From Parcubacteria group bacterium GW2011_GWA2_40_14 (GTDB lineage Bacteria > Patescibacteriota > Minisyncoccia > Phycocordibacterales > DATDWN01), in contig LBYF01000001.1 in NCBI GenBank assembly GCA_000996025.1, positions 3,507-67,506 on the forward strand: DNA of 64,000 nucleotides, in the 5' to 3' direction. The translations under genes and the position numbers were made by a program. Below the pieces are notes generated by a model that saw only the letters and a program-made list of their open reading frames with translations, was not told the origin of the DNA and did not search any database. The first letter of the stretch is position 1, and every line of letters begins with the position of its first letter. Shown here one piece after another: positions 30,017 through 62,363 of the stretch.

Positions 30017-31222
30017 ATGGCAGAATCAGCAAAATTTGATAGAAGCAAGCCCCACATCAATGTGGGTACTATTGGTCACGTTGACCACGGCAAGACTACA
30101 TTAACAGCAGCTATTTTGGCTGTGCTTGGAAGAGCTGGCGCGGGATATTCATCCAGACTAAAAGGAGTTGACCAAATCGACTCCGCACCTGAAGAAAAAG
30201 CTCGTGGAATCACCATCGCTTTATCCCACAACGAGTATGAGACACCTGCCCGTCACTATGCTCACGTGGATGCTCCTGGTCACGCCGACTATATTAAAAA
30301 CATGATTACTGGCGCCGCACAGATGGACGGCGCAGTCCTTGTGGTTGCCGCAACAGACGGTGTCATGCCTCAAACACGAGAGCATGTTCTCCTTGCAAAA
30401 CAAGTTGGTGTGCCAAAGATAATCGTATTTCTAAACAAATGCGATATGGTTCCAGACAAAGAGCTTATTGATTTGGTGGAGGAAGAAGTTCGAGAACTTC
30501 TAACAAAACAAGGTTTTGATGGCGCGGGAGCTCCTGTAATCCGAGGTTCAGGATTGAAAGCTCTTGAGTCAAAAGACAATACAGACGAATGGGCAATGAA
30601 AGTTCTGGACTTGGCTAGTGCATTGGACACATATTTCCCAATTCCACAGCGAGATTTGGACAAGCCATTCCTCATGCCAGTTGAAGACATTTTCTCTATT
30701 GAAGGACGAGGTACTGTAGTAACAGGCCGTATTGAAAGAGGCGTTGTTAAAGTTGGCGAGGAAATAGAATGTATTGGATTGAAAGACACACAGAAATATA
30801 CAGTTACTGGTATTGAAATGTTCAACAAGTCTCTTGACCAAGGTCAGGCAGGAGACAACGCTGGAATCTTGCTCCGTGGTGCCAAGAAAGAAGAAATTCA
30901 CCGAGGTCAGGTGCTGTCAAAGCCAAAGTCTGTTACTCCTCACACAGAATTTACAGCAGAGGTTTATATCTTGAAGAAAGAAGAAGGTGGACGACACACA
31001 CCTTTCTTTACTGGTTACAAACCGCAGTTTTACATCCGAACAACAGATGTTACAGGTGACGTTACTCTAAACGAAGGTGTTGAGATGGTCATGCCTGGAG
31101 ATACAGTCACTTTCAAAGTAAAGCTCGTTGCTCCGGTTGCGCTTGAAGACAATACGCGATTTGCTATACGCGAGGGAGGAAAGACTGTTGGCGCTGGGGT
31201 CGTTACCAAGATCATAGCGTAA
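30017..31222 (+). CDS. tuf: Elongation factor Tu
   Basis: [23 protein letters not shown]. Confidence 0.99.
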
Positions 31223-55467: not shown

Positions 55468-55656
55468 ATGAGCAAAGCTGAAAAGGAAATTGTAAAAGTG
55501 GTCAAAAAGACAATTCTCGAATCTATTCATGGGGTTTTTGCCGACCCTGATCAAGGACTGGAACTCAAAGAATCTATAAAAAGACGCCTGAAAAAAGCAT
55601 CGTTATCTCCCAAAGGATTTATTACCCTTCCATCCGCCAGAAGAAAATTTGCTTAA
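55468..55656 (+). CDS. Small probable antitoxin
   Basis: DPDQGLELK motif; directly upstream of a RelE gene. Confidence 0.75.
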   Translation: MSKAEKEIVKVVKKTILESIHGVFADPDQGLELKESIKRRLKKASLSPKGFITLPSARRKFA

Positions 55657-55661
55657 TTTAT

Positions 55662-55925
55662 ATGTTGCGCTGGAAAGTAATTTTTTCGCTTGACGCACAA
55701 GATGATTTGGATAATTTGTCTCGCTCAGTGCGGGATAGGGTTTTTGATAAGCTGGGATGGTTTGAAAATAATTTTGACTCAATAACACCTCTCCTTTTAA
55801 CTGGGAAGTTTAACGGTTTCTACAAGTTGCGAGTGGGTGATTGGCGGGTAATGTATCAGATTGATTGGAATAAAAATTATATTATTATTCATGTTATTGA
55901 CCACAGATCAAACATCTACAAGTAA
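55662..55925 (+). CDS. RelE/ParE-family toxin
   Basis: YKLRVGDWRV, HRSNIY. Confidence 0.92.
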   Translation: MLRWKVIFSLDAQDDLDNLSRSVRDRVFDKLGWFENNFDSITPLLLTGKFNGFYKLRVGDWRVMYQIDWNKNYIIIHVIDHRSNIYK

Positions 55926-59094: not shown

Positions 59095-59691
59095 ATGAAA
59101 ACAGAAAATTCTGTACTGATGAAACAGGCACGAGAAGCACTCTCGGGCAAATGGGGTTTAGCGATTTGGGCATTTTTTCTCTACTTTTTAATTACTTTGA
59201 TCATTCAAAATATTCCAAAAGTTGGGTCATTTATCCCGTTGTTCATCAGTGGACCAATGGCTCTTGGCTTTGCTATTTTTTCTTTGTCTATATCAAGAAA
59301 TCAAAACCCAAAACTTGAACAAATATTTGAGGGTTTTAAAAGATTCGGTACATCACTTGTAGCGTTTATACTGATGAGTTTGTTTACATTATTATGGACG
59401 CTCCTTCTCATAGTTCCGGGCATTATAGCCAGTTTATCGTATTCAATGACATTTTATATTATCGCTGATGACAGTTCTATGGGAGCAATAGAAACCATAA
59501 AAAGAAGCAAAAAAATGATGTACGGTTTCAAATGGAAGTATTTAGAACTACAACTTCGATTTTTAGGTTGGGCTCTCTTGTCTATCCTGACGCTCGGCAT
59601 TGGTCTCCTTTGGCTTGTTCCGTATATGAGTATCAGTAATGCTAAATTCTACGAGGATATAAAAATAGTTAACCTGACACCTGTATTTTAA
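59095..59691 (+). CDS. DUF975-family membrane protein
   Basis: AREALSGKWG, LLIVPGII..LSYS, TLGIGLLWLVPY. Confidence 0.88.
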   Translation: MKTENSVLMKQAREALSGKWGLAIWAFFLYFLITLIIQNIPKVGSFIPLFISGPMALGFAIFSLSISRNQNPKLEQIFEGFKRFGTSLVAFILMSLFTLLWTLLLIVPGIIASLSYSMTFYIIADDSSMGAIETIKRSKKMMYGFKWKYLELQLRFLGWALLSILTLGIGLLWLVPYMSISNAKFYEDIKIVNLTPVF

Positions 59692-59908
59692 TACAGGTGT
59701 TGCAATTGATTGTTGAACTAGATTAATTATACAAAAAGCCTTAAAAATAGGGCTTTTTGTTAGTTTGTGGACATGGACCCAAATACTTGGAACCAGTTGC
59801 ATGATTATGTACTGGAATGGCACCCGGCTGTAGAGGAAAATTCTCGTCGAGTGGAAGAAAAGTAATCAATAATTGAAATATTAAAAATAATTTGAGACAA
59901 TACAGTCA

Positions 59909-60295
59909 ATGAAAAAAGATTTTGATGATTGGAACAAAAAGAAAAAGAAAATTCATAAAAATGATAATGCTCCATTTTGTCACGAAAGGGAGCTCTGGTG
60001 GGGTGCTCTCGGTGTGAACATAGGTTCTGAACAAGATGGTTCTGGTAAAGAAGATTCTCGTCCAATACTTGTACTGAAAGGTTTGAGTGTCCAAACATGC
60101 GTCGTTATACCTCTTACTACTTCTACAAGTATTCATACACTGCGACCATCAGTCGGAATTGTGGAAGATGAAGAAGCACATGCTTTGATGTCACAAATTA
60201 GAGTCATTGATACAAAACGACTAATCCGCAAAATAGGTTATCTTGATAAAAAGATATTTCAACAGATACGAAAAATCGCCAAAGACATGCTTTAG
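59909..60295 (+). CDS. PemK/MazF-family toxin with no adjacent protein antitoxin
   Basis: GVNIGSEQDG, RPILVL, IPLTT, SQIRVIDTKRL. Confidence 0.92.
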   Translation: MKKDFDDWNKKKKKIHKNDNAPFCHERELWWGALGVNIGSEQDGSGKEDSRPILVLKGLSVQTCVVIPLTTSTSIHTLRPSVGIVEDEEAHALMSQIRVIDTKRLIRKIGYLDKKIFQQIRKIAKDML

Positions 60296-60360
60296 CGATT
60301 TTTCTCCCTCTTATTTTTTCTGCCGTTTGCCTCTTACGAGGCGAGGCCGAAGCCACTTGT
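60296..60360 (-). ncRNA. Candidate small RNA convergent on pemK (3' end uncertain)
   Basis: Minus-strand TTGACA-16-(TGc)TATACT (60394-60367); hairpins GGC-UUCG-GCC and GCCUC-GUAA-GAGGC. Confidence 0.62.
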
Positions 60361-60413
60361 ACTGTAAGTATAGCAAGTCTCTAATGAATGTCAAATTAAA
60401 TATAATAAAACGA

Positions 60414-61340
60414 ATGAAAGAAAATCTACAACTTAATGAAGAAATTGTAAAAATTATTCAAAAATTAAAACTAGAACCAGTTCGAATGTCTTTTGCAGTT
60501 ATAAATTTACATACTCCAGAGCCAGAAATTGCTGGATATCACATGGATGAGTTTATATATCCCGCAAGTATATATAAAGTTTTTGTGGGAGCAGAAATTT
60601 TGCGGAAAGTTTATGAAAAAATATTGAACCTATCGGATATAGTAGAAATCAAATCTCCAAATGATGTTGATAGGGATATTTGCCTTTTTCCTAAAACTAC
60701 TAGCAAAGACCACAGACCACCCTTGAAAGCTGGCGATAAAATGACCATTGATTATCTCCTTGATCTTGTATTCAGTCGAAGTGACAATACTGCTTCTAAT
60801 ACGCTCATAGATATTGCAGGTAGAGAAGATATCAATAGCCATATTATTTTACCAAATGGATGGAAAGGAAGTGAAGTTACTAGAAAATTTCTTGACCGAT
60901 TAAAAGAAGAAAAAGAATATAGAGTTTCGCGTATTACCGTATCAAATGCTCGGTATCTGGCAGAATTTTTTTATAAAATAGAAAAAGGAGAATTAGTTAG
61001 TAAATGGGTCTCAGAGAAATTAAAAGCTTACATGCAAAATTGGAATCGTGAAGGAAGAAGTGGATTAAACCTTCCTGAGTTTGTTAATTACTATAGAAAA
61101 GGCGGATGGCTTGAAATAAATGGATACAAATATAACTTTTTAAGCGCGATAAAAAACGTCACCAAGAAAGGATATGCGGTCAACAAATGGAGTAATGACG
61201 CTGGAGTAGTCACTGGTCAAAATTCACATTATGCTCTGGCACTTTTATCACTTACTAAGTCAGCGTGGCCATGGACAGAGTTTCCTTTGAAATCATTTGC
61301 AAAAGAGATACACATCTTGATGGAAAAATTAGATAGATAA
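60414..61340 (+). CDS. Class A beta-lactamase-like serine hydrolase
   Basis: SIYK (SxxK), SDN, KGG and NDAG motifs; ATG at 60414. Confidence 0.88.
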   Translation: MKENLQLNEEIVKIIQKLKLEPVRMSFAVINLHTPEPEIAGYHMDEFIYPASIYKVFVGAEILRKVYEKILNLSDIVEIKSPNDVDRDICLFPKTTSKDHRPPLKAGDKMTIDYLLDLVFSRSDNTASNTLIDIAGREDINSHIILPNGWKGSEVTRKFLDRLKEEKEYRVSRITVSNARYLAEFFYKIEKGELVSKWVSEKLKAYMQNWNREGRSGLNLPEFVNYYRKGGWLEINGYKYNFLSAIKNVTKKGYAVNKWSNDAGVVTGQNSHYALALLSLTKSAWPWTEFPLKSFAKEIHILMEKLDR

Positions 61341-61446
61341 ATTTTATACAACAAAATAGCCTTATTTTAGGGCTTTTTGTTGTTGTGGCGCTTCACGAGT
61401 ACATTCAGCATCCTACAAAAATATAGTCGCTTCGCTTGTTATTTTG

Positions 61447-61842
61447 TGGAAGTGGCGATATCGAAATCGCATGCATACAGAGAATTGAAACGAATCTACA
61501 GCGCGTAGTTTATTTAATGTTTAAATCATATTGCTTGGAACAAACAAAATGCGATACAATCGAGTCTTCTTTATTTCAAAATATTTCCGAGACAAAAAAT
61601 ATTTCTAACCTCAAGTTATGTCAATCAACTCCTCGTACGAGATATGTGAGGAGCGACCGTCTCTTAGGGCTGTTGTTTAGACAGTGGCGTAAGAGAAAGC
61701 GAAGTCGTTTGCTCCATAAAATGGAGAGACGATTGCTTTAGATAAGTTTTTTACACTTAATCTTTCCAAACTGTTTTAGGAGAGCTTGGCGCTCCGCGTT
61801 GCCTGAATCAATGTCATCTATATGTCAAAACCTGTCACTCCC
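61447..61842 (-). ncRNA. ssrA: tmRNA
   Basis: 5' GGGAGUGACAGGUUUUGAC; acceptor stem GGGAGUG/CACUUCC-A with G3:U; T-arm GCGAU-UUCGAU-AUCGC; P2 pairings cauauaga/ucuguaug; tag ORF present; adjacent to smpB. Confidence 0.93.
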
Positions 61843-61919: not shown

Positions 61920-62363
61920 TCAACGATCTTTAAAATCTCTTCCTATCTCTCTTTCCGTATCTCGTTTTTTCAATGTCTCGCGTTTATCAAACTTTTTCTT
62001 ACCTTTTGCAGTGGCAATATCAATCTTCACTTTCGGTCCTTTATTATATACCGAAAGAGGGACAATTGTCAACCTGTTTTTTTGGTCTATGGATACGAGC
62101 TCGGATATCTCTTTTTTTGTAAGCAATAGTTTGCGATTGCGGTAGGGGTCATAATCTTTCGGCGTATTTGCCGGCTGATATGGTGGAACGAACATCCCAA
62201 CTACGTATGCTTCACCACCTCGTATGGTAATATGAGCACCCTCCAATGAGCCCTGACCAGCTTTTAGGGATTTTACTTCAAAACCAAAAAGCTCTATGCC
62301 AGCAACATAGGTATCCAATATCTCGTAATTAAACCTAGCTTTTTTATTGGTTATGAGTGACAT
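61920..62363 (-). CDS. smpB: SsrA-binding protein
   Basis: NKKARFNY, GIEL.G.EVKSL, RKLLL, GKKKFDKR. Confidence 0.98.
   Translation of the reverse strand: MSLITNKKARFNYEILDTYVAGIELFGFEVKSLKAGQGSLEGAHITIRGGEAYVVGMFVPPYQPANTPKDYDPYRNRKLLLTKKEISELVSIDQKNRLTIVPLSVYNKGPKVKIDIATAKGKKKFDKRETLKKRDTEREIGRDFKDR

Follow-up and report, generated by a model that had tools for sequence, protein, structure and literature searches.

The window, by which we mean the whole stretch of 64,000 nucleotides analysed, belongs to a 638-kb genome that is 97.8% complete (G000). The nearest named loci come from Patescibacteria (Yonathbacteria, Parcubacteria, Saccharibacteria), a phylum to which this genome very likely belongs as well. 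Within the window a DUF975 gene, the gene pemK (our study locus, L008) and a beta-lactamase-like gene follow one another in that order. MazF/PemK toxins normally pair with MazE-type protein antitoxins. The features of the locus, with its hairpins numbered P1 to P3, are as follows.

59731–59760, plus strand: terminator-like hairpin at the end of the upstream DUF975 transcription unit (Pfam DUF975)
59873–59901, plus strand: predicted toxin-gene promoter with an extended TG, scoring 9/12 and ending 7 nt before the ATG
59909–60295, plus strand: pemK, a predicted PemK/MazF-fold endoribonuclease gene of 128 aa (Pfam PemK_toxin, E 1.5e-11)
59921–59959, plus strand: clade-specific N-terminal helix, residues 5–17 (W8 invariant, F5 and K12 at least 90%)
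60367–60394, minus strand: convergent sigma-70 promoter TTGACA-16-TG-TATACT, scoring 11/12
60355–60360, minus strand: predicted single-stranded 5´ leader ACAAGU, with the predicted start at 60360, 7 nt after the −10 box
60345–60354, minus strand: P1, a 3-bp hairpin with a UUCG loop that covaries across the clade
60329–60342, minus strand: P2, a 5-bp GC-rich hairpin with a GUAA (GNRA) loop; a U tract comes next in 58/77 relatives, where P2 is a likely terminator
60270–60304, both strands: P3, an inverted repeat across the last pemK codons and the stop, with a U tract on each strand; predicted bidirectional terminator
60265–60360, minus strand: predicted small RNA, ~95 nt here and ~50–55 nt in most relatives, folding at z −3.8

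The hairpin that closes the DUF975 unit likely insulates the toxin gene. With only 7 nt between the end of the predicted toxin promoter and the ATG, the mRNA likely has no leader; across 79 loci of the toxin's clade a −10-like box lies 5–9 nt before the ATG 27 times, compared with 4–17 times in other 5-nt bins, a signal that is weak on its own. An acidic 30-codon ORF at 59773–59865 (plus strand), between the terminator and the toxin promoter, has no convincing match in the other loci compared and is probably a remnant or a chance ORF.

A sequence-only reading of this DNA had pointed to a minus-strand promoter behind pemK followed by two hairpins with cUUCGg and GUAA loops, and both are present. 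The promoter is the best of eight promoter-like sites in 3 kb, where shuffles yield 9.5 sites at a looser threshold of 9/12; its boxes and spacing are conserved, and the two tetraloops are canonical on the minus strand only. P3 is a third hairpin beyond those two. Its arms change together in L001, L002, L003, L005, L006 and L009, and it is predicted to form the 3´ end of the small RNA in the subclade of the study locus. An integron attC site, suggested by TAAC at several stops, was set aside on inspection because the inverted repeat is made of the last codons and is missing in most subclades. The z of −3.8 for the predicted small RNA owes mostly to P3: the 67-nt minus-strand segment with P1 and P2 alone folds at an unremarkable z of −1.07, and P1 is absent from its minimum-energy structure. 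The evidence from this single locus is thus weak, and support for the RNA comes from its relatives.

The pemK RNA motif of Firmicutes is among the Rfam families. An Rfam search gave no match near the gathering score at 59650–60500; the sole match in the window is a tmRNA at 61444–61842 (minus strand), downstream of an smpB-like ORF at 61920–62363. The ATG of the beta-lactamase-like gene, at 60414, is preceded at a distance of 7 nt by a plus-strand TATAAT box (within 60395–60416), back to back with the small-RNA promoter. At 55468–55925 (plus strand), 4 kb from pemK, an 87-aa toxin of the ParE/RelE family follows a 62-aa ORF, the two forming an ordinary type II-like pair of genes, and the genome also carries a canonical MazE–MazF pair on another contig (C17, locus L219).

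The toxin protein and its N-terminal helix

The 128-aa protein is modelled as a soluble MazF fold (pLDDT 92). In structure comparisons the model is closest to M. tuberculosis MazF-mt1 (Z 14.2, rmsd 1.6 over 101 residues), with which Foldseek agrees, and it is nearer to MazF than to CptN (Z 10.0), ToxN (Z 7.0) or AbiQ (Z 5.8). E41 and R51 are invariant among 105 clade sequences and positions 70–71 are mostly T/S; these positions align with the catalytic region of B. subtilis MazF, and we take the catalytic Glu, Arg and Thr residues to have the roles assigned to them in MazF. Databases name the clade proteins type II toxins. Pfam detects only PemK_toxin and a weak CcdB, NCBIfam calls MazF for 49 of the 105 members, PADLOC recognises 0/105, and membership of the ToxN, CptN or TenpN sequence families was not found by Pfam, NCBIfam or PADLOC.

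The clade shares with type II MazEF/PemIK the fold, the catalytic Glu/Arg/Thr positions and a predicted homodimer, but it lacks MazE and has an extra N-terminal helix and a downstream RNA gene, and in a quick tree it branches apart from the phylum's canonical MazF (SH-aLRT 99). The helix (residues 5–17) falls outside the alignment with every solved MazF compared. With its invariant W8 and conserved K3 and K12, it co-occurs with the RNA cassette described below. The dimer model scored 0.83 against 0.01 for the best control, with 100% of contacts reproduced and pLDDT of at least 90, and so passed a mark reached by 20/30 solved pairs and 1/23 single chains; as MazF dimers have already been solved, this pass may reflect likeness to them. 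The model predicts that the helix packs against loop 37–41 and at the two-fold axis of the dimer, with residues 3–16 touching that loop of the other subunit. Loop 37–41 is presumably the loop displaced by protein antitoxins. The median net charge of the clade toxins is +9, which overlaps the canonical MazF range of −3 to +16. The name of one homologue, 68% identical (P0036), comes from a 9.7-Mb contig recorded as Bradyrhizobium, which would reflect transfer or contamination.

The RNA cassette in the clade

Homologues occur in 55 of 401 genomes of the phylum, with up to 7 matches in one genome, and the clade profile recovers 776 clusters (50% identity, E up to 1e-30) in a set of 1.84 billion representatives. 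Flanks were examined for the stronger homologue matches only, and canonical PemK/MazF loci identified through Pfam served as controls. A rule-based detector that requires the promoter followed by a short and then a longer stem recovered a minus-strand cassette at 77 of 92 clade loci; its rules were written after the loci had been viewed, and related loci are not independent counts. Its background was 5/92 on the plus strand, 5/88 further downstream and 0/18 at canonical MazF loci (a further control was excluded for its short flank). Inspection by eye shows a variant cassette in most of the 15 clade loci that it missed; L028 and L205 appear to have none and their ORFs are apparently intact, with a 70-aa ORF overlapping the L205 start. 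The best −35 box in the 92 loci is TTGACA in 53 and TTGACT in 21, and the spacer is 16–17 nt in 80. In every case seen the cassette is convergent with the toxin gene, and the modules occupy unrelated gene neighbourhoods. The host genome itself has four clade copies, one of them a fragment, all with the cassette; its canonical copy on C17 has MazE instead.

The earlier expectation that a downstream motif and promoter would be conserved behind homologues holds for the promoter and the stem, at these 77 of 92 loci; the GGCCGAAGCC sequence itself is confined to one subclade, and the stem is the conserved feature. When a 22-letter motif of this subclade was searched in metagenomes, PemK lay directly upstream at 101 of 118 loci (19 near-duplicates). 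Of the other 17, four had <300 nt of flank, and by eye the remaining 13 comprised one chance match, five toxin-gene remnants and otherwise solo cassettes. Viral contigs gave a single match to a 19-letter subclade motif, in an unrelated ORF without PemK, which we set aside as chance; viral presence of the clade rests on Campylobacter prophages.

The sequence-only reading had also found no antitoxin-like ORF beside pemK, and the clade agrees. At the study locus no ORF of at least 40 aa on the toxin's strand abuts the pemK start, and two overlapping minus-strand ORFs are without a Pfam match. Among 89 clade loci with enough flank (3 more had too little), 54 have no abutting ORF, and none of the 35 ORFs abutting clade genes belongs to an antitoxin family; canonical loci have MazE in 11 of 19 and a Panacea domain in one. 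A hidden small protein antitoxin was rejected, as no small ORF is common to the clade (733 ORFs, 92 loci). Nor was a type III-style RNA found upstream of pemK, where 146 nt fold at z −0.03 and have no Rfam match; the conserved RNA lies downstream on the opposite strand.

Covariation, which the same reading had named as a check, is evident in the first hairpin. With the promoter as the only anchor, the P1 5´ arm starts 11–13 nt after the −10 box in 74 of 86 loci, and it pairs with its own Watson–Crick 3´ arm in 62 of 86, compared with 14% for foreign arms; 11 arm sequences pair. In 34 aligned sequences all 11 pairs have two-sided changes, 88% of cells are paired and covariation is 0.577 versus 0.188 (0/500 shuffles), but these sequences were chosen for having both stems, so that their counts show the kinds of change and not their frequency, and the promoter-anchored arm test is the fairer one. 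Aligning 77 RNAs by sequence only put the stems out of register, as did an alignment restricted to P1, and neither was used; all structures predicted and counted were nested. The strand is indicated by the loops and by G-U pairs. Canonical tetraloops cap P2-type long stems in 47 of 64 cases on the minus strand and in 1 on the plus, and P1 stems in 28 of 54 and 0, respectively; interrupted stems have G-U on the minus strand 14 times and on the plus strand 2 times, with 16 others.

The predicted first bases of the RNA are ACA in 29/86 loci and AUA in 13/86. Given the U tract after P2 in 58 of 77 loci, the usual RNA would be ~50–55 nt long, with P2 as its likely terminator. A plus-strand U tract after P2 occurs in only 4 of 77 loci, so the toxin mRNA probably runs through the RNA gene and would be fully complementary to the RNA. 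We found no pairing of the RNA with the toxin start region (mean z 0.04, 76 loci), and a block of translation initiation by the RNA in trans was rejected on this ground. A covariance model of 46 positions built from short-P1 Patescibacteria seeds (R1) gave 31.4 bits at the study locus, itself a seed, and found the C11 copy of the host genome but missed those on C10 and C14; it also gave two weaker matches in this genome, including a hairpin that precedes a tRNA-like sequence. R1 had no match at E up to 5 on the Campylobacterota RNAs, including CJpv3 (below).

Several loci depart from the simple cassette. Downstream of pemK in L158 and L206, two to three non-identical hairpin units follow one promoter (by eye); the L206 units have short repeated linkers in common, like a small antitoxin array, and L034 may be similar. 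In L013, L035, L167 and L207 a second, different cassette lies 100–250 nt past the first, mostly with its own promoter, which suggests that modules inserted repeatedly at the same site and that the older toxin was lost. In L211 (on C10 of the host genome), L024, L025, L029 and others, the toxin frame reads through the RNA gene and the C-terminal tail is the antisense of the hairpins.

Campylobacterota relatives and cjrA/cjpT

Clade members are also found in the C. jejuni prophage CJIE4, on pVir, and on Helicobacter and Nitratiruptor plasmids. These proteins score 104–147 bits against the clade profile, a quick tree places them inside the clade, and the convergent −10 box and hairpins are present in all five intact Campylobacterota copies examined. 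On a C. coli plasmid (L250) PemK is broken close to its start, and we saw no cassette downstream of it; many similar copies on Campylobacter plasmids align as two separate pieces.

From the −10 box we placed the RNA start on pVir at 31119, in exact agreement with the published start of CJpv3, a 77-nt RNA that the accessible part of Dugar et al. 2013 places at 31119–31043 on the minus strand and reports as detected by Northern blot (PMC3656092). The CJpv3 end falls 5 nt short of the toxin ORF. The start signals (step height) tabulated there for pVir are 16164 for CJpv3 and 28 for the toxin mRNA (PMC3656092 Tables S12, S5). For strain RM1221 the same source gives an enriched antisense start behind CJE1470, with a signal of 74 versus 221 for the mRNA (PMC3656092), and this start coincides with our predicted promoter. 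Transcription of an equivalent RNA is shown in Campylobacter relatives only, at these two loci. For the study locus, none of the contigs from four runs fell on the stretch, which counts neither for nor against expression. The prophage MazF protein was detected in 5/5 isolates, with no MazE gene according to the accessible part of Clark et al. 2014 (PMC3995785).

Among the 48 features of pVir, PemK alone carries a toxin–antitoxin annotation, and in strain IA3902 the PemK slot holds a two-protein YafQ pair. Shen and colleagues reportedly described, in 2016, cjrA/cjpT on the pVir of C. jejuni 81-176 as a type I system, with toxicity, rescue and plasmid maintenance shown, and are said to have found a type II pair in the corresponding slot. 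The YafQ pair in IA3902 matches that type II pair, which is circumstantial support for the identity of the pVir PemK gene and CJpv3 with cjpT and cjrA. In the accessible parts of PMC7826846, PMC10470494 and a bioRxiv preprint, CjrA is the antisense RNA antitoxin of a type I system on 81-176 pVir.

The pVir PemK protein scores 105 bits on the clade profile, nests in the clade (quick tree), has the same N-terminal helix and is without MazE, and its convergent RNA, starting 7 nt after the −10 box, has an AAUU-GGC hairpin and a GC-rich end hairpin. The Campylobacter RNA differs in carrying an additional hairpin at its 5´ end and in its longer P1; its likeness to the Patescibacteria RNA is architectural, and cjrA/cjpT is published as type I on one plasmid. 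We consider it very likely that cjrA is CJpv3, and the pVir PemK locus is probably cjrA/cjpT. If cjrA is CJpv3, toxicity, rescue and plasmid maintenance have reportedly already been shown for one member of the family, and the arrangement is not categorically new. The claim that it lies outside the known toxin–antitoxin types is not supported, both for this reason and because convergent antitoxin RNAs overlapping the toxin gene at the 3´ end are standard in Gram-positive type I systems, e.g., txpA/RatA, according to the accessible text of PMC8167048. The family as a whole is probably an unrecognised large group around cjrA/cjpT, and we found no description of it or of its RNA motif in the literature within reach of our search, which left out most subscription papers. 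What is new here is how broadly the family is spread (55/401 genomes of the phylum), a conserved RNA structure that Rfam lacks, and the argument for protein binding.

Possible modes of action of the RNA

That the locus is an RNA-antitoxin module is, in our assessment, highly probable. A single downstream convergent RNA as the putative antitoxin had been proposed from the outset, and conservation, covariation, the exclusion of MazE and the published Campylobacter expression all favour it; none of the outcomes named beforehand as refuting it was seen. Whether the RNA neutralises the toxin by binding the protein, as in type III systems, we regard as an even call, with direct binding slightly ahead of antisense decay.

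With type III ToxIN, CptIN and TenpIN (also AbiF and AvcID) the clade shares the superfold of the RNase toxin and a structured RNA partner, with repeated RNA units in a few loci. It differs in that its RNA lies downstream on the opposite strand under a promoter of its own and usually consists of one unit, with two hairpins (nested prediction only), whereas known type III antitoxins are usually pseudoknot repeats, according to the accessible part of PMC12283969. For AbiF, a cis RNA is described as binding the toxin (PMC12737573, accessible part).

Under direct binding, the toxin would be an active single-strand RNase dimer, presumably made from its own short-leader mRNA, and the strong convergent promoter would yield an abundant RNA of 50–95 nt, with transcription ending at P2 or P3. 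P1 and an A/U-rich leader of 5–7 nt would bind the dimer at its basic surface, close to the added helix, and fill the RNA channel. When the RNA supply stops, on plasmid or element loss or on phage shut-off, free toxin would cut host RNA; antisense action on the mRNA 3´ end may be a second layer. Direct binding is favoured by the fixed distance of P1 from the start despite sequence change, by the extra-stable loops, by the lack of start-region pairing together with toxin mRNAs that have short or no leaders, by the presence of toxin protein in growing C. jejuni, by the co-occurrence of the helix with the RNA, and by the units repeated after one promoter in L158 and L206. Since termination alone explains the covariation of P2, only P1 and the leader call for a partner. 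Several observations argue against direct binding: convergence in every cassette, which binding does not require; the probable read-through of the mRNA; the RNase III gene in the genome; the type I label printed for the Campylobacter member (PMC10470494, accessible part); the RNA start signal in RM1221, which is below that of the mRNA in the available data (74 < 221); the silence of R1 on the Campylobacterota RNAs; the two loci that appear to be without a cassette (L028, L205); and a +9 charge that is within the canonical range.

The main alternative is type I antisense action, in which the RNA would pair with the mRNA 3´ end, RNase III would cut the duplex and convergent transcription would lower toxin output, with P1 as a stabilising 5´ hairpin and P2/P3 as terminator. 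We hold this to be the less probable reading, yet one of real weight. The convergent geometry at every cassette seen, a toxin mRNA that probably reads across the RNA gene, the overlap of P3 with the last pemK codons at the study locus and a gene with an RNase III motif on C4 of the host genome are what antisense decay would lead one to expect. Against it, the RNA is short, mostly paired and capped by extra-stable loops. Such loops are poor for kissing interactions. The RNA also lacks pairing to the toxin start region, mRNA leaders are short or absent, so that translation could begin before the 3´ target exists, and the clade-specific helix and the repeated units are left unexplained. Published work bears on both sides, as far as the accessible texts go: txpA/RatA works by antisense decay (PMC8167048), CjrA is called an antisense type I antitoxin (PMC10470494) and the RNA is in large excess on pVir (16164 versus 28), but toxin protein is detectable in growing C. 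jejuni (PMC3995785). Like txpA/RatA, bsrG/SR4 and fst/RNAII, the clade has convergent genes with overlapping 3´ ends and an RNA predicted to be complementary to the toxin mRNA 3´ end, and fst and RNAII are described as sharing a bidirectional terminator, as P3 would be at the study locus. Their toxins, however, are small membrane peptides and not a 128-aa soluble MazF enzyme fold, and the clade RNA is without start-region pairing and keeps its structure across proteins that are ~30% identical.

The N-terminal helix could instead be a built-in inhibitor, or the protein a tame RNA-binding protein, with the RNA as an activator, guide, substrate or partner. The modelled contact of residues 3–16 with loop 37–41 of the other subunit, the protein seen in growing cells (PMC3995785, accessible part) and the two clade loci that seem to be without the RNA are consistent with this. 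We nevertheless consider it quite unlikely, as the catalytic residues are invariant, decayed loci keep the RNA cassette when the toxin is truncated or collapsed, and the pVir module sits in the slot of the IA3902 two-protein YafQ pair. Loss of the toxin before the antitoxin is the usual order of decay in toxin–antitoxin pairs. The least likely reading, to which we give a very low probability, is that the hairpins are mere terminators, mRNA 3´ structure or the DNA-level end of a mobile cassette, with an incidental promoter and neutralisation by a MazE encoded elsewhere: P2 and P3 are terminator-like, the genome has the canonical MazE–MazF pair on C17 (L219) and the module occurs in unrelated neighbourhoods, but promoter boxes and spacing are conserved, loops and G-U pairs (14 versus 2) favour the minus strand, and the predicted RNA is the measured primary transcript at two Campylobacter loci (PMC3656092, accessible part).

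Building on direct binding, we tentatively propose, at slightly less than even confidence, that a large clade of MazF proper, widespread in Patescibacteria, present on plasmids and prophages of Campylobacterota and given a type II annotation throughout, swapped MazE for an N-terminal helix and a 50-nt two-hairpin RNA decoy that binds the dimer. Such a module would be a new type III family, convergent and pseudoknot-free, and a living intermediate from MazF to ToxN; cjrA/cjpT would then have to be reclassified. MazF genes that stand alone are routinely recorded as type II toxins with a missing partner, whereas in this clade an unannotated RNA appears to take that place. Should the RNA bind the protein, it would be among the smallest antitoxin RNAs, and one RNase fold would have moved from protein to RNA control, a shift that is the question raised by the common MazF/ToxN fold. 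If it acts as an antisense RNA, the clade would make up a very large type I family whose toxin is an enzyme. Either mechanism would explain the MazE-less MazF of C. jejuni prophages.

Among the gene neighbourhoods, peptidase S24 (LexA/UmuD-like) genes abut PemK genes in L003, L201, L204 and L226, of which three are clade loci and one is canonical.
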